Positions 22,784 to 32,911 are shown, counted from the stretch's first letter. The stretch is DNA of 64,000 nt from Bacteroidales bacterium (GCA_963677675.1 OY782180.1:712084-776083), one strand, 5' to 3'. Notes: generated by a model not told the origin, from the sequence alone. Translations and numbers: made by a program.

Positions 22784-23101
22784 TTATTTCTTCTCAATCT
22801 CTTTGGCAGGATATCCAAGTTTGTCAAGTGCTTTTGCAAGGTTATCCTTCGTAGTCTTATCGGCCTCAAAACTAAACCATATTGTTTTGTTTGCAAGATC
22901 AACTTTCATGTCTTTCACGCCTTTTTCATATGGAAGTTTTGCCTCTAATTTCTTCTGACAATTCATACAGTCAATGTCCGGAATTGAAAATGTTACTTCA
23001 ACCTTTTTATTTTCTGTTTTTTTATCCTGAGCCGATGCACCTGCCGATACAAATATAAGGGCAGATAGTGTAAAAATCATAATAGTTTTAAATGCTTTCA
23101 T
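22784..23101 (-). CDS. Heavy-metal-associated (HMA) domain periplasmic protein
   Basis: Signal peptide, IDCMNC (CxxC) metal-binding loop; start at MKAFK. Confidence 0.88.
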   Translation of the reverse strand: MKAFKTIMIFTLSALIFVSAGASAQDKKTENKKVEVTFSIPDIDCMNCQKKLEAKLPYEKGVKDMKVDLANKTIWFSFEADKTTKDNLAKALDKLGYPAKEIEKK

Positions 23102-23127
23102 AATTGTTTGTTTTATTGTTAGTTTAT

Positions 23128-25377
23128 TTATTTCCAAATTGTAAATCTAAGACCTGCATATACCTTAACTCCCATAAGAGGACCCCAGATAAGTGTAGAA
23201 TTGAATCCCTGACTGTACGGGTCGCTGGCATTCATTATCGGATGCTTCTGCCTGTAATTGCTGAGATTTTCTCCTCCTATGTAAACATCAAGGTCTCTGA
23301 ATTTTTTTGTAACCTGAGCATAAAACATAGGATACACAGGAGAGTTGCCTCCTCCAGTAAAGCTGGGCAATTTTGAAGGGCCGTTAAGCTGCGCGGTAAA
23401 ATCAAAAGTCCATTTATTCATTCTTGTAGCATACTGAAAATTGAGCACACCTTTGTAGCGGCTCACAAGCGGCCTCTCTACGAGTCCCTGGCCTTCCAGC
23501 GTTGCCTTGGCATCGTTATAACGGAAAGTTGCAAGTATTGTAAATCTTTCAACCGGTGCGACAGAAAAATCGGCCTGATAGGTATTTGTATAAGATCTTC
23601 CATCCAGATTATAAAACCTGATTTCAGAAGTATTGAATTCCTGATCTACAATGAGCTGAGAATTAAAATCAGTCCGGAAATAGTCAAAACTAAGTGAAGC
23701 TTTTTTATCAAATCCAAATGGCATGTAACCAGTTAGATTAACTCCGTATGTCCATGCATCTTCGATATCCGGGTTGTTTTCAAGAACAATGTTTCGCCCT
23801 GTTGAAAGTATGCCAAGGTTGTCCGAAATCTGATTCGGGGAGCGGAATCCTCTGCCGGCTGACCCACGAAATATGAGCTCGTCAAAGAATGCATATTTCA
23901 CATTTACCCTGGGAGCGAAAAGCCATCCGTAAATATTGTTTCTGTCCAGCCTGATGCCTGTAACAACGGATACTTTTTCACCTTTAGTATATGTATACTC
24001 TCCATATGCTCCAACGGACCTCTCCTCTCTTCCCGGATAAAGAACAGAAACATCGCTGAGTTTATCTTCAGAGAATGTAAAATCCCTTCTTGTGAGAGTC
24101 TCGTCCAGATTATCCACCTGGCCGCTTAAACCCAGAATTAATTTGTGGTTTTCATTAATCTCATTCTGAAATATCACATTAACAAAAGCAGAATTTTGAA
24201 TTGCATCAAATTTATTCAACCCGAAGAATGAATTTAATCTGTGCCACGAGTAGTCAATTACTGTTGCAATGTTTTTACTGTTATCGGCATTAAGAGGGAT
24301 GCCTACTTTTAGAAATGCATTAAGTCCAGTGTTTTTTATCTCCGAGCCCCACAGATCTGAAGTGATATCCATCCCCTTTTCGAATTCATTCATCCCTGCA
24401 ACTCTGTCGTCGCTAAGTGCCTTAAACCCGAATCTTATCTGCATTCCGTTCTCTGCAAGATATAACCATCTGTTTGCCACGTTAAACTGCATAGAAACCG
24501 GTTCATCCTTGAATCCGTCATGATTTCCGTCATGACCTTTCGGGTCGGTTGAGAAGTGCCCCAGCATAACTGTGCTCCATTTATTGTTCAACTGAAGCGA
24601 TGATGCGACATTTGCCTCGGTACGCAAAGTATTGCTGAGGAAAAGATTCAGAAATAGCGGCTGTTCTGCCGTTGGTTTCCTGTGTTCAAGATTTATTTGT
24701 CCTGTTATCGCTTCCAGACCATTTACAACAGATGAGGGTCCTTTGGCTATCTGTATGCTTTCGAGCCACTGACCGGGTATATATGAAAGGCCGAATGGTG
24801 CAGCAATACCTCTCATTACAGGTCTGTTTTCGTCAAGCATCTGTGTATAAATTCCGGAGAGACCCAGTAATCGTATCTGCCGGGCTCCGGTTATTGCATC
24901 GGCATATCCTACCGTTACGCTTGCAGAGTTTTCAAAACTCTCTGCCAGGTTGCAACAAGCCATTTTGCAAAGTCCCGCAGCAGTAATGACTTCTGTCTTT
25001 ACCGGAGTTATTTTTGACAGGAAATTTCCTTCCTGTTTTCCTACAACTCTTGCGGCGTTCAGTTCATTTTGTTCCTTCAGAAGAAGTTCTGCCTTTACTT
25101 CCCCGTTTTTAAGCAATAGAGTATCTTTTGTATAGCCAACATAAGTGGCAATCAGGGATACTGTTCCTGAGCCTTTTTTGTTGAAAGAGAATTCTCCTTT
25201 ATCGTTTGACTCGAGAGAAATTTTCCCTTCAAGCCAGTATATTGAGGCGAAAGCCAATGGCTCAACCCCTCCGTCACTCTTCTGAGCTTTAACTATGCCG
25301 TTAATAGTCTGGGCATTAATAGTCAGAGCAGAAGATATAAAAAGTAAAAATGTTAAAATTTTCCTGTTCATATTCAT
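23128..25377 (-). CDS. TonB-dependent receptor (probably metal uptake)
   Basis: CarboxypepD-like N-domain, plug with ACCNLAESFE, IQIAKGPSSV, C-terminal YAGLRFTIWK. Confidence 0.9.
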   Translation of the reverse strand: MNMNRKILTFLLFISSALTINAQTINGIVKAQKSDGGVEPLAFASIYWLEGKISLESNDKGEFSFNKKGSGTVSLIATYVGYTKDTLLLKNGEVKAELLLKEQNELNAARVVGKQEGNFLSKITPVKTEVITAAGLCKMACCNLAESFENSASVTVGYADAITGARQIRLLGLSGIYTQMLDENRPVMRGIAAPFGLSYIPGQWLESIQIAKGPSSVVNGLEAITGQINLEHRKPTAEQPLFLNLFLSNTLRTEANVASSLQLNNKWSTVMLGHFSTDPKGHDGNHDGFKDEPVSMQFNVANRWLYLAENGMQIRFGFKALSDDRVAGMNEFEKGMDITSDLWGSEIKNTGLNAFLKVGIPLNADNSKNIATVIDYSWHRLNSFFGLNKFDAIQNSAFVNVIFQNEINENHKLILGLSGQVDNLDETLTRRDFTFSEDKLSDVSVLYPGREERSVGAYGEYTYTKGEKVSVVTGIRLDRNNIYGWLFAPRVNVKYAFFDELIFRGSAGRGFRSPNQISDNLGILSTGRNIVLENNPDIEDAWTYGVNLTGYMPFGFDKKASLSFDYFRTDFNSQLIVDQEFNTSEIRFYNLDGRSYTNTYQADFSVAPVERFTILATFRYNDAKATLEGQGLVERPLVSRYKGVLNFQYATRMNKWTFDFTAQLNGPSKLPSFTGGGNSPVYPMFYAQVTKKFRDLDVYIGGENLSNYRQKHPIMNASDPYSQGFNSTLIWGPLMGVKVYAGLRFTIWK

Positions 25378-25422
25378 ATTTAAAATTGTAAATAACTGAT
25401 ATTCAAAAAAATGAATATCAAT

Positions 25423-25869
25423 TTACAATCGCCATTGGGCTAAATATGAATGAGGATTTTTTTGATTTAAAAGTGGCGGACCGCCATATAATGATTCTGA
25501 TGAGTCAAAATGTTTGATTCCCGAATTGAATGCCGATTGACAGAATTCAAGATCCGATATGAGGTTAAAATAAGGAATCTGGGAAACCAGTGTGGAATGA
25601 GTTAAATCATATCCTTGTTCGAGGTGATGGATTTCTGTATGACAGCAGTTATGGTCGTGATGTTCCTGAGAACAGGCTGTTACCCCGTCACAAGAACTAT
25701 TATGACTATGATTGCCTTGATGAACATCTTCACACGATGCGTCCTTAATAAGCAGAACAACAGTAGATGTGCCGTCTTTATCACACTTGTGCACCCCAAT
25801 ACCAATGCTTGCAGTAATGTACAAAAGCACAAGCAGGGAAGGTATGATATATTTGAGAGCACTCTTCAT
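25423..25869 (-). CDS. His/Cys-rich metal-binding protein (HYC_CC_PP-like family)
   Basis: GIGVHKC...HHDHNCCHTE...GGPP pattern; typical position upstream of TBDR and HMA genes; TACTTTTG promoter just upstream. Confidence 0.65.
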   Translation of the reverse strand: MKSALKYIIPSLLVLLYITASIGIGVHKCDKDGTSTVVLLIKDASCEDVHQGNHSHNSSCDGVTACSQEHHDHNCCHTEIHHLEQGYDLTHSTLVSQIPYFNLISDLEFCQSAFNSGIKHFDSSESLYGGPPLLNQKNPHSYLAQWRL

Positions 25870-25893
25870 CGGGGGCAAAAGTACGATGTTTTT

Positions 25894-27393
25894 TTAATTA
25901 TCAATCATTTTATCGAATTCGGCAGAAATGTCTTTATCTCCTATAAAGTCGTACAGGCTTAGTTTCCGGATGTTAAAATAATAGAGCCAGAAGTTACCAA
26001 GGTCGCTAATAAGCCTTGTTGAAGCCTGATCCTTTTCGGATTGTGCATTATTAAGTTCTGTAACGCCAATGGTTCCGTCAAGGAAGCGTTCACGGGTATT
26101 ATCATATCTTTCCTTAGCAATCGAGTCGGCTCTTGCAGAGAGGTTACACTGCAGCACCTGATTGTTAAACTGAATAACTTTAATGAAAATGTTCTGTTTG
26201 TATTCTGTCATCTCCTGATCTACCTGAGCTCTCACAACCTCCTCGCGCGACTTTGCCATTTTAACCCTTCCCTTTCCAAGACCCCAGTCCATAATCGGGA
26301 GCCTCAATCCAAGACTCACAATCTGCTGGTCCATTGTATTGGAATAGGCTGTTCCCAAGTCGCTCCCCTGCTGGGTGAGACCAAACTGAGCATTAAGATT
26401 TGCCTGTAATCCCTTACTGGCTTTCATCCTCTCAACCTCCTGCTGTGCCGAAAGAATCTCAAGTTCATTATCCAGCAGGAATGCCGAGTTGGCATAAGAC
26501 TTTGTAAGAACCTCATCGAAATTAAGCGTCACGCCGGGTCCCGATTTTGGAAGGATAAGTTCCAGTTCAACATTTTCGTTAAAACCGAGAAATGTTTTAA
26601 GACGTAGCATTTTCATTTCAAGGGAAAGCTGATGGTCGTTTATCGCAAGATTGTCATTAATCATTCTAAGCTCCAGCTGCAAAAGTTCGTTTTTTGAAAC
26701 GGTATTCTTTTCATATCTCTGCTTAGCCAGTTTGTAAAGAGAAACCGTATTTTCATAGTTTTTGCTGGACATGGTGAGCCTCTGCTGAGCCTGAAGAACA
26801 TCAAAGAACATAGGCGTGACACTCACTACAATATTTTCAAGCTGATCAAGATATCTGCGTTTGGCTCTCTCATATTTCTTTGGCTCGGTTACCATCTCCC
26901 ACTTAAGAGTGTTATAGGTCCTTAATGGCTGGATATATGTAATGTTTATGGGTTGCGAATTATATGTTGCCGGATTGCTGCTGTTGTTAAACTGATCCAG
27001 CCGGTACAGACTTGTAAACACAGAAACCTTTCCACCGGTAAATGCAATATTTTGGTCTATCGACAGCGAAAGGCTGTTTTTGAGGTTGTTGTTGGCAATA
27101 TAATTAATCTCTCCTGTTTCGGAGTTTTGCAAAGGAACAAGTGACCGGTTGTACTGGCCCACAGTTGCAGAAAGATTGAGAGAAGGAAGAAGCTGTGCTT
27201 TAAAAGCGCGAAACTGCCAGTAACTTGCCAGAAAATTGTGTTTTGCAACAAGTGCGGATGGTGATTGATCTCTTGCCGTCTCAATAACTTCGTCGAGAGA
27301 CATTAAAAGTCTTATTTTTTGCGCAAATGAATGTGTTGATAATAAATTAAATACAACAATAAGTGAGACTAATAATTTACTTATTTTCTTCAT
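25894..27393 (-). CDS. TolC family outer membrane efflux protein
   Basis: Signal peptide, duplicated OEP repeats (LLPSLNLSA...QPL; GLQANLNAQFG...LRLPIMDWG). Confidence 0.88.
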   Translation of the reverse strand: MKKISKLLVSLIVVFNLLSTHSFAQKIRLLMSLDEVIETARDQSPSALVAKHNFLASYWQFRAFKAQLLPSLNLSATVGQYNRSLVPLQNSETGEINYIANNNLKNSLSLSIDQNIAFTGGKVSVFTSLYRLDQFNNSSNPATYNSQPINITYIQPLRTYNTLKWEMVTEPKKYERAKRRYLDQLENIVVSVTPMFFDVLQAQQRLTMSSKNYENTVSLYKLAKQRYEKNTVSKNELLQLELRMINDNLAINDHQLSLEMKMLRLKTFLGFNENVELELILPKSGPGVTLNFDEVLTKSYANSAFLLDNELEILSAQQEVERMKASKGLQANLNAQFGLTQQGSDLGTAYSNTMDQQIVSLGLRLPIMDWGLGKGRVKMAKSREEVVRAQVDQEMTEYKQNIFIKVIQFNNQVLQCNLSARADSIAKERYDNTRERFLDGTIGVTELNNAQSEKDQASTRLISDLGNFWLYYFNIRKLSLYDFIGDKDISAEFDKMIDN

Positions 27394-27445: not shown

Positions 27446-27817
27446 TTAAATCTCATTCAGAATTTTCTCGTCATAAAATTTAGAATAAAAAAACATAAAA
27501 ACGAGAGCCCTTATAATTGAAATGATTATCGCCCCTCCCAAAATGAGACTATAATTTGAGTAGTCATATTCGCAAATAAAAAAGAGAAACAGGAAATTTG
27601 CACATGCAAGGTTAAACCCAATTTCCCTGAGCAGCGAGATTATATTAAACGGGAGATAATTAAACTGGTACAAATTTGTAATAAAAACCCGCAGCCATTC
27701 ACAGTTGCATTTTTTTACGCGTTTATGCCAGTTCATCTTATGAACTAAAGAGGCAAGAATGCTTGTTGTCACACCGGTAACAACAGCAATAAATATTATT
27801 TTAAATAAAGCATCCAT
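27446..27817 (-). CDS. Small AT-rich membrane protein (about 3 TM), candidate immunity or accessory protein
   Basis: 123 aa, hydrophobic segments, starts 4 nt after the HlyD stop. Confidence 0.55.
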   Translation of the reverse strand: MDALFKIIFIAVVTGVTTSILASLVHKMNWHKRVKKCNCEWLRVFITNLYQFNYLPFNIISLLREIGFNLACANFLFLFFICEYDYSNYSLILGGAIIISIIRALVFMFFYSKFYDEKILNEI

Positions 27818-27821
27818 AATA

Positions 27822-28334
27822 TCATTTAAAAATATGTTTTAATGGATTGTATATTTTTTCAAGTACACTTGTTTCTGCAGTAATTATTTCGGCATCTCCC
27901 TCAAGAACTGCTGCCGCATTTATGGAGAGCCCCTTATTTGTTGTGAATCCGTGGGGGAAAACCAATTCAACAGTGTAAAATTTACTTTCTCCCTGTTTTG
28001 AAGGCAAAAGTTTAATACCAGATACTTCTGCTTCAATTGAGCCATATTCAATGTATGGATAGGCTCTCAGCATAATGGTTACATCCTGGCCCAGTCTAAC
28101 CCTTTCAACTTTGGACCCGGTGAGTACAAGAGTACCTTTAAAACTTGCTACCCCGCTAATTGAAACAGAAGCCCTGATATTATCGGAAAATTTAAAGTTT
28201 GCGCCAAATACAAAAAGTGAAATTACTATTGCTATCATTAAAAAATTACCCCACCGGATTATCCATTTTGGTGGTCTGGAGAGAATATCGTTAATATCTT
28301 CCGACTTTAATTCTATTTTTCTCTCATTAGACAT
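27822..28334 (-). CDS. Short HlyD-family periplasmic adaptor (about 170 aa; lipoyl and alpha-hairpin region absent)
   Basis: ELKSEDINDILSRPPKWIIRWG plus a TM, joined directly to the beta-barrel motif GQDVTIMLRAYPYIEYG...GDAEIIT...LEKI. Confidence 0.8.
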   Translation of the reverse strand: MSNERKIELKSEDINDILSRPPKWIIRWGNFLMIAIVISLFVFGANFKFSDNIRASVSISGVASFKGTLVLTGSKVERVRLGQDVTIMLRAYPYIEYGSIEAEVSGIKLLPSKQGESKFYTVELVFPHGFTTNKGLSINAAAVLEGDAEIITAETSVLEKIYNPLKHIFK

Positions 28335-30519
28335 ATAGCTGATTTTTAACAAGTTCATAATAAGGTCCCTGTTTGGCAACTAATTCCTCATGGCTCCCCT
28401 CCTCCATCACGACACCTTTATCCAGTACTACTATTTTATCTGCATTTTTTACAGTACTCAGGCGGTGCGCTACAACAATAACTGTCCGCCCTACAAAAAA
28501 GCTGTTGAGATTCTTCATTATCTCTCTTTCATTGTTTGCATCAAGTGCATTTGTTGCTTCGTCAAATATGATAAACTCCGGATTTTTATACACTGCTCTT
28601 GCAATTAACAGTCTCTGTTTTTGTCCCATGCTGAGCCCGTTTCCCTCCTGCCCTATTTTTGTGTTGTATTTGAGAGGAAGTGATTCGATAAATTCTCTGA
28701 TATTTGCAATTTCTACAGCCTTAAGCAACCTGTCTTCGTCAATCTTTTCCACTCCGGGAGCAATGTTGTTTGCAATTGTATCAGAGAAAATAAATCCATC
28801 CTGCATAACAACACCGCATTTGGACCGCCATGCGCTCATACTAAGGTTGAGTAGCCTGTTTGGCCCGTAAAAGATTTCACCGAAAGTTGCGGAGTAAAAA
28901 CCAAGCAAAAGTTTAATGAGAGTAGTTTTTCCGCTGCCGCTCGTGCCAACTATTGCCGTTATTTTTCCCGAAGGAATAATGAGGTTAATGTTTTTTAGGA
29001 CATACCCTGCTCCGGCACCTTCGTATTTAAAAAACATATTGTCGATTACAATATTCTCTCCTGAAGGAATTTCGGAAACTAATGTTTCGCTTGTATTCTC
29101 TTCCTCCTTTTTGTCGTGAATTTCTGCCAGCCTCTCAAGGCTTATTTTTGCATCCTGAGAAGATTGCATAAAGGCAATAATCTGAGCAACCGGGGAATTA
29201 AGCTGGCCATTAATAAACTGCACAGACAACATCATACCTAAAGTGAGGTCGCCGTCTATTACCGATTTTGCAGCAATAACAGTTATGAAAATGTTTTTAA
29301 GCTGATTGATGAGGGTAGCCCCGGCCTCCTGATACTGCCCGAGCGCAAGTCCTTTTATATTCAGCTTAAAGAGTTTTGCCTGAATTTTCTCCCATTCCCA
29401 GCGTTTTTGTCTTTCGCAGGAGTTTAGCTTGATTTCCTGCATGCCTGTAATAAGTTCAATTACCGAACTCTGGTTTGCAGCATTCTGGGTGAATGATTTA
29501 TTATCCAAATCCCTCCTGCGCCTCATGAACTGAGATACCCACAACAAATATATGATTGAACCAACAAGGAAAATTAAAAATATTTTCGGACTGTAATAAA
29601 GAAGTACAGCACCAAAAATTAATATGTTGAACAAAGAAAATAAAATGCTTAAAGATGATCCTGTAAGGAAATTTTGTATTCGTTTATGGTCGCCTATTCT
29701 CTGAAGCAGGTCGCCGGTCATTCTGGTATCGAAAAAACCAATCGGAAGCTTCATGAGCTTTGTGAGAAAATCGGAAAGAAGCGAAATGTTTATTCTCGTT
29801 CCAAGGTGGAGGAGAATCCAGCCCCTTATGAAATCGACGGATGCCATACTGAGAGTGAGCATGAGCTGAGCAAGAAGAACGAGCCAGATAAAGCTTATGT
29901 TTCTTTCACCGATACCAACATCAACAATGCTCTGCGTGAGAAAAGGAAGACAAAGCTGCAACAGGCTTCCGAGCAGCAAACCGCATATTACCTGAATAAT
30001 AAGTTGCCTGTGGGGTTTAAGATAAGAAAAGAGGAACGAAAAGCCTTTAGGGTTTATAGTTTCTCCCTCAACTTTATAAAACTGTGGCGTGGGTTCCAGA
30101 AAAAGAGCAATTCCTCTTCCCTGGCCATCGCTGACTGTTGTGAGCCATGATTTTTTGAATTCGTCTGCAGTAAGTTTTACAAGACCTGTTGCGGGATCGG
30201 CAATTAACATTCTGATATTTTCCCCGCTTCCCTTCACTCCGTACAAAACTACAAAGTGTTTCTGGTTCCAGTGCAGTATGCAGGGCAATGTTCCTTTGCA
30301 TAATTCTTCGAACGAAAGCCGTGCACCGAGACTTCTGAGGCCAATGCTTTCCGCAGCCTTGCTTATTCCGAATAAATTTACGCCTTGCTTTGAAAATTCA
30401 CATTTCTCTCGCAGTGTCTCCAGTGTATAGTGGCGGCCATAGAAGTTTGCGATCATCCTGAGCGATGATGGTCCGCAGTCTGTTGAATCCAGCTGAGAGA
30501 AGTGTTTGAATCCCTTCAC
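28327..30519 (-). CDS. Peptidase C39-containing ABC transporter (PCAT; bacteriocin/pheromone processing exporter)
   Basis: QLDSTDCG (catalytic Cys), HFVV (His), IADPA (Asp); TMD; Walker A GTSGSGKTT, LSMGQKQR, DEATNALD, AHRL; GTG start. Confidence 0.96.
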   Translation of the reverse strand: MKGFKHFSQLDSTDCGPSSLRMIANFYGRHYTLETLREKCEFSKQGVNLFGISKAAESIGLRSLGARLSFEELCKGTLPCILHWNQKHFVVLYGVKGSGENIRMLIADPATGLVKLTADEFKKSWLTTVSDGQGRGIALFLEPTPQFYKVEGETINPKGFSFLFSYLKPHRQLIIQVICGLLLGSLLQLCLPFLTQSIVDVGIGERNISFIWLVLLAQLMLTLSMASVDFIRGWILLHLGTRINISLLSDFLTKLMKLPIGFFDTRMTGDLLQRIGDHKRIQNFLTGSSLSILFSLFNILIFGAVLLYYSPKIFLIFLVGSIIYLLWVSQFMRRRRDLDNKSFTQNAANQSSVIELITGMQEIKLNSCERQKRWEWEKIQAKLFKLNIKGLALGQYQEAGATLINQLKNIFITVIAAKSVIDGDLTLGMMLSVQFINGQLNSPVAQIIAFMQSSQDAKISLERLAEIHDKKEEENTSETLVSEIPSGENIVIDNMFFKYEGAGAGYVLKNINLIIPSGKITAIVGTSGSGKTTLIKLLLGFYSATFGEIFYGPNRLLNLSMSAWRSKCGVVMQDGFIFSDTIANNIAPGVEKIDEDRLLKAVEIANIREFIESLPLKYNTKIGQEGNGLSMGQKQRLLIARAVYKNPEFIIFDEATNALDANNEREIMKNLNSFFVGRTVIVVAHRLSTVKNADKIVVLDKGVVMEEGSHEELVAKQGPYYELVKNQLYV

Positions 30520-30599
30520 TTTTATAACAAATTCATTTTAAATAATTTGGACAATTGTAACAATTATCCCAATGCATAATATAATTATGCCGTTCAATT

Positions 30600-30641
30600 G
30601 TAGTTTAAATGCTGAAAATCAGCATATTGTCATTAAACTAC
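30600..30641. other. Nested stem-loop between the precursor and PCAT genes
   Basis: GTAGTTTAA-ATGCTGA-AAA-TCAGCAT-(bulge)-TTAAACTAC; second hairpin GCATAAT-ATA-ATTATGC at 30574-30590. Confidence 0.5.
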
Positions 30642-30661: not shown

Positions 30662-30799
30662 TTAATTTCTTCCGTCGCGGATAATGATGTAAACTACGTT
30701 ACCTTCGCTGTCGATTATTTGTAAAACTTTGTCACCGCCGATTACATTAATCATCTCTTGTTCATTCAAATTTTCAAATGTTGTGTTTGTTGTTTTCAT
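30662..30799 (-). CDS. Double-glycine-leader peptide precursor (45 aa), absent from the ORF track
   Basis: MKTTNTTFENLNEQEMINVIGG|DKVLQIIDSEGNVVYIIIRDGRN*. The leader fits the LSxxELxxIxGG consensus, and the gene lies immediately upstream of a PCAT. Confidence 0.88.
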   Translation of the reverse strand: MKTTNTTFENLNEQEMINVIGGDKVLQIIDSEGNVVYIIIRDGRN

Positions 30800-30844
30800 T
30801 GCATTTATTGTTTTTGTTCATACAAATAAATTAATAAAAATTGT

Positions 30845-30852
30845 TAGATTTG
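30845..30852 (+). promoter_or_regulatory. Bacteroidetes primary-sigma -7 element (TAnnTTTG) for the HK/RR operon
   Basis: TAGATTTG about 40 nt upstream of ATG 30892. Confidence 0.65.
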
Positions 30853-30859
30853 CATACAA

Positions 30860-30892
30860 ATTACTGACTGTTTACTGATAGTTTGCTGAAAA
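30860..30892. promoter_or_regulatory. Three direct repeats in 11-bp phase, candidate OmpR/PhoB-type regulator site
   Basis: ATTACTGACTG / TTTACTGATAG / TTTGCTGAAAA (core TTRCTGA). Confidence 0.6.
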
Positions 30893-32265
30893 TGCTAAAT
30901 CGCGCACTCTCCATTTCAATTATCGCCATTCTTTTTCTTCTCTCCCTTCAGGGGGCATGGCTCGTGAGAATCATTGAAAATGAGAAAACTAAATTTAAAA
31001 CTGATGCCGAAAAAATTTTAAAAGACGCTACAAATAAGGAATTAAACACAAGGCTAAAAACACTTAACCAAAGTAATTTTAGCGTAGTTCTTTCAAATAA
31101 TTTTTCTCCAGATAAAGTTTCTTCAAATACAAAGGTTCAAACTTTAGATATTTCCAAGTCAAGACCATACACAAAAGTTACTCTGGAAGAGGCTCTTCAA
31201 GAGGCATATAAAGATGATTTTCCTTTGAATCTGGATACTTTATCCGCAATTTTTTCAAGATTGCTGGCAAAAGAACAAAAATCTACAAATTACAAACTCG
31301 CATATATTTCCTCCGATACAACAAAAATCATTGAGTCTGAAAAGACAAATACAAATATATTTTTCCTGAACTCTTCATTTGAGACAACATTACCACTAAC
31401 TGTATCGAAAGATCTCTCAATTAAGGCAACTATTTTCTATCCCCGCACTGTATTTAAAGGAGACCTGCTTACAATATTGATTTTGTCCCTTGTTTTAACG
31501 ATATTTATTCTGTTCAGCATAGTCATGCAGACACGAATGTTATATAAACAGGTATCGCTTGCAAAGCTCAAGGAGAACATCACACACTTCCTCACGCACG
31601 AGCTCCGTTCACCTCTTCAGTCTTCAATAACCAATCTTGAGGTTGGGCAAATGGCCGACAGCAAAACAGCACCTTATTTTCTTGAGAAAACGAAGGAGCA
31701 GCTTTACTTTCTAAATGGACTCATCGAAAATATCCTGGATATAAATAAGTTTGAGAAACGTCAGTCTTCCCTTAAAAAAGAGCTGTTTGATATAAATGCA
31801 GCAATTGAACCGCATATCGCAAGGCATAATGTGGATGCGAAGAAAACCGTTACAATTTCCACAGACATCACACCCGGAAACGAGATGTTTTATGGCGACA
31901 AGCTTCATATTTCCAATGCTATTGGAAATCTTATAGACAATGCAATCAAGTATTCAAACGATCCTGTGAACATTATAGTTTCGGCAAAAGAAGACAAGCG
32001 TTTTTACAACATCTCTGTTGAAGACAACGGTATTGGAATACCAAAGGATGAACAATCAAAAGTATTTGAGAAATTCTACAGGGTAAATAAGAGAGAACAC
32101 TCTCAAAAAGGCAAGGGTTTCGGCCTCGGTCTAACTTATGTTATGTGGGTGGTTAAGGCCCATAAAGGAAAAATATCTCTCACCAGCGAGGTGGGAACGG
32201 GAAGTAAGTTTACATTATCACTAATTAAAAACGAACATGGCAAAGAAAATACTGCTCGCGGATGA
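30892..32265 (+). CDS. Sensor histidine kinase (2 TM, about 165-aa periplasmic domain, HisKA, HATPase)
   Basis: THELRSPL H-box, NLIDNAIKY N-box, DNGIGI, FEKFYRV, GFGLGL. Confidence 0.95.
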   Translation: MLNRALSISIIAILFLLSLQGAWLVRIIENEKTKFKTDAEKILKDATNKELNTRLKTLNQSNFSVVLSNNFSPDKVSSNTKVQTLDISKSRPYTKVTLEEALQEAYKDDFPLNLDTLSAIFSRLLAKEQKSTNYKLAYISSDTTKIIESEKTNTNIFFLNSSFETTLPLTVSKDLSIKATIFYPRTVFKGDLLTILILSLVLTIFILFSIVMQTRMLYKQVSLAKLKENITHFLTHELRSPLQSSITNLEVGQMADSKTAPYFLEKTKEQLYFLNGLIENILDINKFEKRQSSLKKELFDINAAIEPHIARHNVDAKKTVTISTDITPGNEMFYGDKLHISNAIGNLIDNAIKYSNDPVNIIVSAKEDKRFYNISVEDNGIGIPKDEQSKVFEKFYRVNKREHSQKGKGFGLGLTYVMWVVKAHKGKISLTSEVGTGSKFTLSLIKNEHGKENTARG

Positions 32266-32911
32266 CGAGTTAAACTTCGGCTATGCGATGAACGAGTTCC
32301 TGAAAATGAATGGTTATGACCTCAAATTCGTGAATGACGGGAGGAGTGCGCTTGAGCAATACCACATTTTTCACCCGGATCTTTTGCTTTTTGATGTAAA
32401 TATGCCTGAAATTGACGGATTCGAACTCGCTAAGCTAATACGGGCAACAGACAAAAACATTCCGATTATCTTTATCACCTCTATAAGCGACGACAGCAGC
32501 GTTGCAAACGGTTTTGAAATAGGCTGCAGCGACTACCTTAAAAAACCTTTCGGCCTTAGAGAGCTGATTATACGAGTTGAAAAATGTCTTAAAATTTCAA
32601 CAAAAGACAACGACATTTTTACAATCGGAAGCATGAATTATTCTCCGGAAGACAGAAGCCTCATTCAGCAGGATGGTTCATCAATTACCCTCTCATTCTA
32701 CGAAAACAGCCTTTTACAAATACTTTGCAACAACTACAATCAGATTTGCAAGATTAACGACCTTGTAAATACAATTTGGGGAGACAAAGATATCGATACA
32801 AAAAAATCTCTTGAGGCTCTGGCGTCTCACCTGAGAAAAAAGCTTTCAGAAACCGGCATTAATGTGGAGAACATACGCGGTGTGGGTTACAGACTCAGAA
32901 AAACGGAGTAA
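32237..32911 (+). CDS. OmpR/PhoB family response regulator
   Basis: ADDE, FDVNMP phospho-Asp, KKPF, winged helix ending NIRGVGYRL. Confidence 0.95.
   Translation: MAKKILLADDELNFGYAMNEFLKMNGYDLKFVNDGRSALEQYHIFHPDLLLFDVNMPEIDGFELAKLIRATDKNIPIIFITSISDDSSVANGFEIGCSDYLKKPFGLRELIIRVEKCLKISTKDNDIFTIGSMNYSPEDRSLIQQDGSSITLSFYENSLLQILCNNYNQICKINDLVNTIWGDKDIDTKKSLEALASHLRKKLSETGINVENIRGVGYRLRKTE

Follow-up and report, generated by a model that had tools for sequence, protein, structure and literature searches.

A conserved double-glycine peptide beside a histidine kinase and response regulator in one genus of Bacteroidales: a candidate peptide signal

We analysed a 64,000-nucleotide stretch of DNA from a Bacteroidales bacterium (GCA_963677675.1, OY782180.1:712084-776083; hereafter the window, with positions counted from its first letter), in which a 45-codon gene on the minus strand (30662..30799) encodes a double-glycine (GG) peptide precursor. 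The gene is real and conserved, and the sequence evidence gives good support to its product being a substrate of the peptidase-containing ABC transporter (PCAT) encoded after it, and to the export of that product. On its other side, the gene faces a divergent pair encoding a sensor histidine kinase and a response regulator, and the DNA in between carries a 44-bp array of four direct repeats. In our preferred reading, to which we give a probability of roughly 0.4, the exported hairpin would be a ligand of the adjacent kinase.

Identification and conservation of the precursor gene

Read on the minus strand from 30799 to 30662, an ATG-initiated open reading frame (ORF) of 45 codons gives exactly MKTTNTTFENLNEQEMINVIGGDKVLQIIDSEGNVVYIIIRDGRN, which matches, residue for residue, the translation in the initial annotation of this DNA. 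A plus-strand reading of the same interval was rejected because its frame is interrupted by a stop, and the gene is therefore placed on the minus strand. Split at the predicted cleavage site, the product comprises a leader, MKTTNTTFENLNEQEMINVIGG (residues 1-22; 30734-30799), and a 23-residue core, DKVLQIIDSEGNVVYIIIRDGRN (30665-30733), followed by the stop codon (30662-30664). The leader residues listed in the initial annotation were all found as given, with V at -4, M at -7, E at -8, L at -12, F at -15 and GG at -2/-1, and the search it had suggested with the model TIGR01847 returned 16.4 bits for leader residues 8-22, the curated cut-off being 15.7. The gene call draws on the ORF and its translation, this match, conservation, the ratio of nonsynonymous to synonymous substitutions (dN/dS) and an AlphaFold2 model.

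An ORF of this size is uninformative on its own, with 137 ORFs of at least 30 aa overlapping the surrounding 18 kb. A regular expression for GG leaders, run in six frames through the whole 2.43-Mb genome, matched twice; one match was the precursor ORF, and the other was taken as a false positive from its sequence alone. In public data, 23 protein clusters were near-identical to the precursor (78-98% identity). The gene had been described as unannotated, which holds for the annotation track then at hand, but only locally, because NCBI names some of these close relatives 'bacteriocin [Bacteroidales bacterium]'. Moreover, contigs from four wastewater runs labelled RNA-Seq span the peptide gene and the intergenic region, and the depth over the peptide gene equalled or exceeded that over the flanking kinase and PCAT genes in three of the four, which lends weak support to its transcription.

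A family profile search detected an orthologue in about 29 of the 36 species of the host genus (G008, G017 and G018 are among those lacking a match) and none among the 24 further families sampled from the order. The ORF is thus retained across homologous loci, on which the initial annotation had made its proposal depend. An exhaustive HMMER profile search of 1.84 billion representative proteins recovered only about seven peptide clusters; matches to SprB, LapA, BNR and C2 proteins were rejected as distant homologues, their scores being summed over many beta-hairpin repeats. On these searches, the family does not extend beyond a single genus of uncultured Bacteroidales, which, judged by organism titles, includes Bacteroidales bacterium CF (CP006772), and which also comprises many metagenome-assembled genomes from wastewater, digesters, groundwater and sediments.

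Leader, core, charge and dN/dS were compared using 28 orthologous genes extracted from the genus. The leader, M-x-T-T-F-E-K-L-N-(D/E)-Q-E-M-I-N-V-x-G-G, is nearly unchanged: position -4 is V, I, T or N, the residues at -7 (M), -12 (L) and -15 (F) vary little or not at all, and GG is found in 27 of the 28 orthologues, the remaining one having GS. The pattern conserved in the core is h-h-(K/R/Q)-h-(T/I)-D-x-x-G-N-V-h-Y-I-I-I-(R/E)-(D/E), with variation in the first residues after GG, in the turn and in the C-terminal tail, which is often strongly acidic. By the Nei-Gojobori method, pN/pS was 0.12/0.46 for the leader and 0.35/0.74 for the core, and dN/dS was approximately 0.16-0.23. The peptide gene is under purifying selection.

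In the congener G023, the peptide position is occupied by a tandem array (L016:8011-8633; C1:~1158000-1158640) consisting of one degenerate copy with a Cys in its core and two copies that are intact; the assembly has a run of N between them.

Predicted structure of the mature core

The core encoded in the window has a net charge of -1, a monoisotopic mass of 2628.42 Da and a pI of 4.7, and contains no Cys. The cores of the 28 orthologues range from 23 to 36 aa, with a net charge of -7 to +1 (median -2.5), no Cys and rare His. An AlphaFold2 model of the peptide, built on a 19-sequence alignment, places a helix at leader residues 13-19 and folds the core as a hairpin with strands at residues 24-29 and 35-40 (core pLDDT 77-87). 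The description of the core as Cys-free, near-neutral and beta-hairpin-like is borne out by its composition and charge and, for the hairpin, by the agreement between this model and the core conservation pattern.

A sequence search of the PDB with the peptide returned only chance hairpin matches (E of at least 0.23), the best of which (E = 0.23) was a protein named '170_h_ob', whose matched segment is hairpin-like. Searches with NCBIfam, Pfam, HMMER and the PDB showed no homology of the core to any verified bacteriocin core. Whether it acts as a signal or as an antagonist, the core adds a new type to the known PCAT substrates.

Transporter genes and predicted export

The PCAT gene (28327..30519, minus strand) starts 142 nt downstream of the peptide gene and encodes a 730-aa protein with a C39 peptidase domain (Q9/C15/H88/D108), followed by a transmembrane domain and a nucleotide-binding domain (Peptidase_C39 at 1e-30, ABC_membrane and ABC_tran; TIGR01193/TIGR03796-like). 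The catalytic residues Q9, C15 and H88 were read off the sequence. Apart from the precursor, no convincing GG-leader ORF lies near this PCAT, and a domain and profile search found no peptide-modifying enzyme family, radical SAM included, among the operon products. On these in silico features, the locus would work mechanistically as a GG-leader/PCAT system: the C39 domain would cleave the 45-aa precursor after Gly22, and the transporter would export the core in unmodified form.

The next gene (27822..28379, minus strand) encodes a shortened HlyD-type adaptor of 185 aa, with an N-terminal anchor and the C-terminal beta-barrel part, which matches TIGR01843 at profile positions 316-413 only. The adaptor measures 432-460 aa in most congeners, against 185 aa in the species of the window and in L004, its closest relative. 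The window's species has undergone an in-frame internal loss of about 210-255 central residues, from the region where the lipoyl and alpha-hairpin parts are expected. The G020 (L027) adaptor is shortened in another way, to 212 aa, and has lost the C-terminal part. Behind the adaptor gene lies p123 (27446..27817, minus strand), encoding a 123-aa hydrophobic protein that matches no family and is immunity-like by position. It is found after the adaptor in most species, with 27-40% identity between them, and was not matched (tblastn, E <= 1e-5) in L019, L020, L023, L024 and L026, all of which retain the peptide and the PCAT. A TolC-family outer-membrane factor (25894..27393, minus strand; OEP, TIGR01844) is encoded next; only the window's species and L004 have the TolC gene at this operon position. 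In the metagenomic relative L004, the PCAT (L004:5963-8172) is split into ORFs of 627 and 100 aa, by a frameshift or an assembly error.

Between the peptide stop and the exporter start, the 142-nt spacer is structured (30549..30625, minus strand), with three hairpins, the last at 30549-30569 (minimum free energy -30.4 kcal/mol, z -2.6). The first hairpin contains the palindrome TGCTGAnnnTCAGCA, also given as TGCTGAAAATCAGCA (30610-30624, minus strand), 37 nt past the peptide stop. This palindrome is an inverted repeat of the hexamer of the repeat array described below, is unique in the genome (0.12 expected) and is conserved in most species; four species with the TGAGCA-type hexamer carry GCTCA-n6-GCTCA instead. 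The spacer element may be an attenuator or an mRNA stabiliser that raises the ratio of peptide to transporter transcript, or another regulator site.

The structured spacer 3' of the ORF, the internal deletion of the adaptor in the window's species and the split PCAT of its closest metagenomic relative could also be taken as signs that the peptide is not exported at all, the ORF acting on the transporter operon as a regulatory upstream ORF or being, in the window's species, a decaying remnant. We consider this very improbable. The amino-acid sequence itself is conserved, with dN/dS of about 0.2 in both leader and core; every leader position recognised by PCATs is kept across the genus; and the PCAT of the window is full-length, with its catalytic residues.

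The kinase-regulator pair and the repeat array

The sensor histidine kinase gene (30892..32265, plus strand) starts at the ATG at 30892 and encodes TM1, a periplasmic domain of about 165 aa, TM2 (TM, transmembrane segment), and HisKA and HATPase_c domains. In the AlphaFold2 model, the periplasmic domain consists of helices and a four-stranded sheet and is PDC-like. Homologues of this sensor domain were found solely at 44% identity or more and under unspecific source names; they appear to belong to the same genus as the peptide. CusS-like metal sensing was judged unlikely, the sensor having no invariant His, Cys or Met. A Foldseek search with the full kinase model retrieved kinase cores and gave no match on the sensor. 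The kinase gene is followed by one for an OmpR/PhoB-family response regulator (32237..32911, plus strand; Response_reg and Trans_reg_C), whose best profile match is RprY-like (154 bits, below the 370-bit cut-off). The gene order, regulator and kinase, then peptide, PCAT and adaptor, was maintained in every locus examined, and the divergent arrangement was present in 14 of the 14 eighteen-kb loci examined.

We compared 28 upstream regions by anchoring them on the box TTATTAATTTATTTGTA (30821..30837, minus strand), which is invariant in 27 of the 28 loci. Within it, TTTATTTG (30821-30828, minus strand) agrees with the Bacteroidetes consensus TAnnTTTG at seven of eight positions and is likely the -7 element of the peptide promoter. 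TTTATTTG lies 21 nt before the peptide ATG, and the 5' untranslated region past the box varies from 20 to 45 nt between species. From the kinase ATG to TTATTAATTTATTTGTA, the genus-wide alignment contains no indels.

This intergenic region contains four direct repeats in 11-bp phase, TTTCAGCAAAC TATCAGTAAAC AGTCAGTAATT TGTATGCAAAT, which form a putative operator of 44 bp (30848..30891, minus strand). The array adjoins the kinase ATG, lies between the kinase and peptide genes and ends exactly 17 nt upstream of TTTATTTG. Its hexamer occurs as TCAGCA, TGAGCA or TAGGTx, with TGAGCA in some species and TAGGTx in the most divergent, and with a constant 11-bp phase. The last unit overlaps, on the opposite strand, a perfect Bacteroidetes -7 box of the kinase-regulator operon, TAGATTTG (30845..30852, plus strand), seen genus-wide as TA(G/C)ATTTG.

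Searched genome-wide, the triple-phased motif occurs here and in one further place only. This second array, TTTCAGCAAAT GGTCAGCATTT TGTCAGCGTTT TGTGGGCAAAT (G000 C1:~1919178-1919270, outside the window), stands exactly 17 nt upstream of a perfect TAGATTTG, beyond which, after about 20 nt more, comes the ATG of a 584-aa kinase with the architecture HisKA_7TM-PAS-HisKA-HATPase. The arrangement is retained in two close metagenomic relatives (L063:13917-14005 and L064:453-541). The conserved 44-bp array and its second genomic copy with identical promoter geometry are new here. Since TTTATTTG stands 17 nt past the array, as does the -7 box at the second locus, it was assigned as a weak, activator-dependent -7 box. 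A scan for sigma-70 promoters and terminators gave nothing above shuffled expectation, the sigma-70 model being unsuited to Bacteroidetes.

Direct repeats at helical-turn spacing are a known binding mode of the OmpR family, and because the array fits this mode, we read it as an OmpR-type operator, for which the adjacent regulator is the obvious candidate. The presence of only two arrays in the genome suggests a very small regulon, consisting of the peptide operon, the system's own operon and the second kinase.

A signal or an antagonist

In our preferred reading, the adjacent kinase is the candidate receptor of the peptide. Transcription of the peptide gene would begin at the weak activator-type promoter TTTATTTG, and the processed and exported core would fold as a two-stranded beta-hairpin around a D-x-x-G-N turn. 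The PDC-like periplasmic domain of the kinase would sense this hairpin; the phosphorylated OmpR-type regulator would then bind the four 11-bp-phased repeats and switch the peptide promoter on, closing a positive feedback in the manner of nisin and NisKR. The leader of the kinase-regulator operon and the second sensor kinase carry the same array and would be under the same control. Taken whole, this would be a Bacteroidota-native, quorum-sensing-like form of autoinduction, with an acidic hairpin 23-mer, PDC-like sensing and a four-unit operator activating the peptide operon, the system's own operon and that of the HisKA_7TM kinase, a scheme that we put forward tentatively.

Two features of autoinducer systems are present, namely a genus-wide linkage to a kinase-regulator pair and direct repeats in the peptide promoter. 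In addition, the locus is single-copy and part of the stable core genome, not a patchy accessory island; the cores differ from cationic bacteriocins in being short, Cys-free and of acidic to neutral charge; and the candidate immunity gene, p123, appears dispensable, having gone undetected in five species. The nearest PCATs outside the genus also adjoin short, non-cationic GG peptides and regulators.

The divergence of core and sensor gave the best correlation in Mantel tests (r = 0.73-0.85), but simple Mantel co-evolution was rejected as evidence, because all neighbouring genes correlate through shared phylogeny. In partial Mantel tests against p151, a fast-evolving downstream gene described below, core and sensor remained correlated when p151 was controlled for (r = 0.44, p = 0.001), and core and p151 did not when the sensor was controlled for (r = 0.16, not significant).

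Several points weigh against the peptide being the kinase ligand. The partial Mantel result is inflated by phylogeny (non-linear), the control p151 still giving r = 0.52 after the kinase core was controlled for, and the net charges of core and sensor are not complementary (rho = -0.31, p = 0.17). Contact between peptide and kinase is the most weakly inferred step of the scheme, and synteny inside one genus is weak evidence of functional coupling. Two-component systems also control bacteriocin operons through other cues. The tandem copies in G023 are more typical of bacteriocins or of precursors of RiPPs, peptides that ribosomes make and that are modified after translation. With the adaptor truncated in the window's species and, differently, in G020, the export system could be decaying. 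Finally, the wastewater RNA contigs are assembled and strandless, and DNA carry-over is possible.

The initial annotation had judged the peptide more like a signal ligand than a bacteriocin. This preference is supported in part: the linkage, the array, the apparently shared genus range, the weak co-variation of core and sensor and the lack of a constant immunity gene are consistent with it, but an antagonistic peptide under regulation fits almost as well. It is quite possible, if short of an even chance, that the product is an antagonistic peptide without feedback, either an atypical unmodified class II bacteriocin or a very small microcin. The hairpin would then harm rivals through beta-augmentation on an outer-membrane or periplasmic target or through membrane insertion, the two-component system would tune production to another cue, and p123 would confer immunity where present. 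The leader does reach the cut-off of the bacteriocin GG model, and NCBI gives relatives the name 'bacteriocin'; most species encode a small membrane protein past the adaptor; diversification of the core is rapid (pN 0.35, versus 0.12 in the leader); and one species (G023) has tandem copies. A PCAT with a HlyD-type adaptor and TolC is also the secretion architecture of class II microcins (PMC12219008), and bacteroidetocins provide examples of Bacteroidales GG toxins that can lack immunity genes (PMC6671954; PMC10352776).

An antagonistic role is at odds with the cores themselves, which are only 23-36 aa long (2.6 kDa here), acidic (median charge -2.5), Cys-free and not amphipathic-cationic. They show no sequence kinship with known bacteriocins, the NCBIfam and Pfam matches lying in the leader or extending from it, below cut-off. 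Nor does such a role sit easily with a gene that is near-universal, single-copy and syntenic in the genus, not patchy and accessory, or with the failure to detect p123 in five peptide-bearing species. Moreover, the second PCAT of the same genome precedes a more conventional cationic, helical GG candidate. The two roles are not mutually exclusive: nisin serves as an antibiotic and also as the ligand of NisK, which belongs to an OmpR-family system (PMC8895600).

That second PCAT (686 aa; G000 C1:2275846-2278172, minus strand, outside the window) is followed by a 63-aa ORF, MQSEVYEGWGIVPLSERDLLTNGG|AGKLKKLVEIIGAAVELLQKAEKYWPNFRDGFKKGWEAA, whose lysine-rich core has the look of a conventional bacteriocin and which has no NCBIfam or Pfam match. 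The next genes encode a 440-aa TolC-like protein and an adaptor of full length (420 aa), and no two-component system is among the ORFs listed nearby.

Outside the genus, the PCATs nearest to that of the window (63-64% identity; Williamwhitmania and others) are accompanied by tandem GG-leader peptides with short, non-cationic cores, such as DNANDGTILPDPVIWIKM (L059:88-438, L060:2453-2877 and L061:2456-2878). The adjoining genes encode a TPR and a TPR-CHAT protein, a LytTR-only protein of 121 aa, an adaptor, and a protein with a radical SAM or thioredoxin domain. These loci may represent another uncharacterised Bacteroidales peptide-regulator module.

Genes downstream of the export operon

Beyond the export genes, the minus strand (22784-25878) encodes p151, a His/Cys-rich membrane protein with a weak match to HYC_CC_PP, a 749-aa TonB-dependent receptor and a periplasmic protein with an HMA domain and a CxxC motif. 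These three genes follow the export genes, in this order, in all congeners examined. A -7 box, TACTTTTG, lies directly before p151 (25876-25883), and the three genes therefore look like a separate, metal-related unit. They are probably a metal-handling unit with its own promoter, independent of the peptide.

Their constant position in every species examined is one of the observations that would fit a different extracellular role for the peptide, as a carrier of a nutrient or metal acting with the HYC_CC_PP protein, the TonB-dependent receptor and the HMA protein, or else as a self-assembling, amyloid-like matrix or adhesion peptide. Both strands of the core are rich in beta-branched hydrophobics, as in idealised beta-structure, and the best PDB match was '170_h_ob' (E = 0.23); repeat-rich beta proteins gave spurious profile matches; and many cores have strongly acidic tails. 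Such a role is nevertheless improbable. Soft-metal ligands are nearly absent from the cores (no Cys, rare His), TACTTTTG suggests a separate transcription unit, and in the window's species the TolC gene separates the two modules. In addition, the p151 family occurs independently of GG peptides, and the synteny within the genus also takes in unrelated housekeeping neighbours, such as SppA.

Relation to characterised peptide systems

With the class II microcins exported by CvaAB-TolC, such as MccV, the locus shares a Gram-negative host, the genes for cleavage and export through a C39 ABC transporter, a HlyD-type adaptor and TolC, an N-terminal GG leader of 15-22 aa, the absence of modification genes and a small membrane protein encoded nearby. 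Known class II microcins are approximately 5-10 kDa (PMC12219008), whereas the core here, at 2.63 kDa, falls below that size and shows no sequence similarity to them. Unlike microcins, it is chromosomal and genus-wide, has its own two-component system and is inconsistently linked to an immunity gene.

Bacteroidetocins are cationic peptides of about 42 aa with disulfide-forming Cys, related to class IIa bacteriocins. They come from the same order and, like the peptide here, combine a GG leader, of about 15 aa, with a PCAT encoded close by and an unmodified backbone (PMC6671954). They can occur without immunity genes (PMC10352776), and their target, as cited in PMC12219008, is BamA. The core here is, by comparison, an acidic hairpin without Cys, and profile searches detected no homology.

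Among Gram-positive pheromones, ComC/CSP (competence-stimulating peptide), BlpC and plantaricin A, with their ComAB-type exporters, are likewise short, unmodified GG peptides with a PCAT and an adjoining kinase-regulator pair; direct repeats in the promoter and divergence of peptide and receptor between lineages are also shared. These pheromones are usually co-transcribed with their kinase and act through polytopic HPK10 kinases and LytTR regulators. In contrast to HPK10/LytTR systems (ComDE, AgrCA; 5-7 TM), the kinase here has two TM segments and a periplasmic domain, and the regulator is of the OmpR type with Trans_reg_C; the peptide gene lies with that of the exporter, and the host has a diderm envelope.

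The closest regulatory analogues are NisK-NisR and SpaK-SpaR, of nisin and subtilin, in which a kinase with an extracytoplasmic loop is paired with an OmpR-family regulator (PMC8895600). Nisin is a secreted peptide that controls its own operon through the two-TM kinase NisK and the OmpR-type NisR (PMC8895600). It is a heavily modified Firmicutes lantibiotic, whereas the locus here has no modification enzymes and the contact between ligand and kinase is a proposal.

Among Gram-negative systems, RaxX, with RaxSTAB, of Xanthomonas comes closest as a GG peptide that is not bactericidal (PMC6637879; bioRxiv 10.1101/442517). Like the peptide in our preferred reading, RaxX is a signal, and a PCAT (RaxB) processes and secretes it together with an adaptor. 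RaxST sulfates RaxX on tyrosine, and the receptor that perceives it belongs to a plant, whereas no sulfotransferase and no sequence similarity were found here. The family TIGR04149 (GG_sam_targ_CFB) has a comparable Bacteroidetes-type GG leader and matches residues 3-23 weakly; a radical SAM-modified RiPP precursor of this type was rejected, since the score is 13.8 bits versus a cut-off of 25, the locus has no radical SAM gene and the core is free of Cys. In a literature search of incomplete coverage, we found no paper on this peptide family or on a peptide-sensing OmpR-type system of Bacteroidota.

Implications

Ribosomal peptide signalling through membrane kinases is textbook knowledge for Firmicutes; to our knowledge, it is essentially undocumented in Gram-negative bacteria. 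The latter are described as signalling with acyl-homoserine lactones, autoinducer-2 (AI-2) and similar small molecules (PMC8895600). Should its role prove to be antagonism, the peptide would stand out among bacteriocins as an unusually small hairpin, acidic and free of Cys. If the signal reading is true, the locus would encode a cell-to-cell peptide signal, unusual for Gram-negative bacteria, in a lineage abundant in wastewater, digester and subsurface communities. The candidate system is compact: one synthesisable 23-mer, one kinase whose periplasmic domain is soluble, a single regulator and a putative operator of 44 bp at only two sites in the genome.

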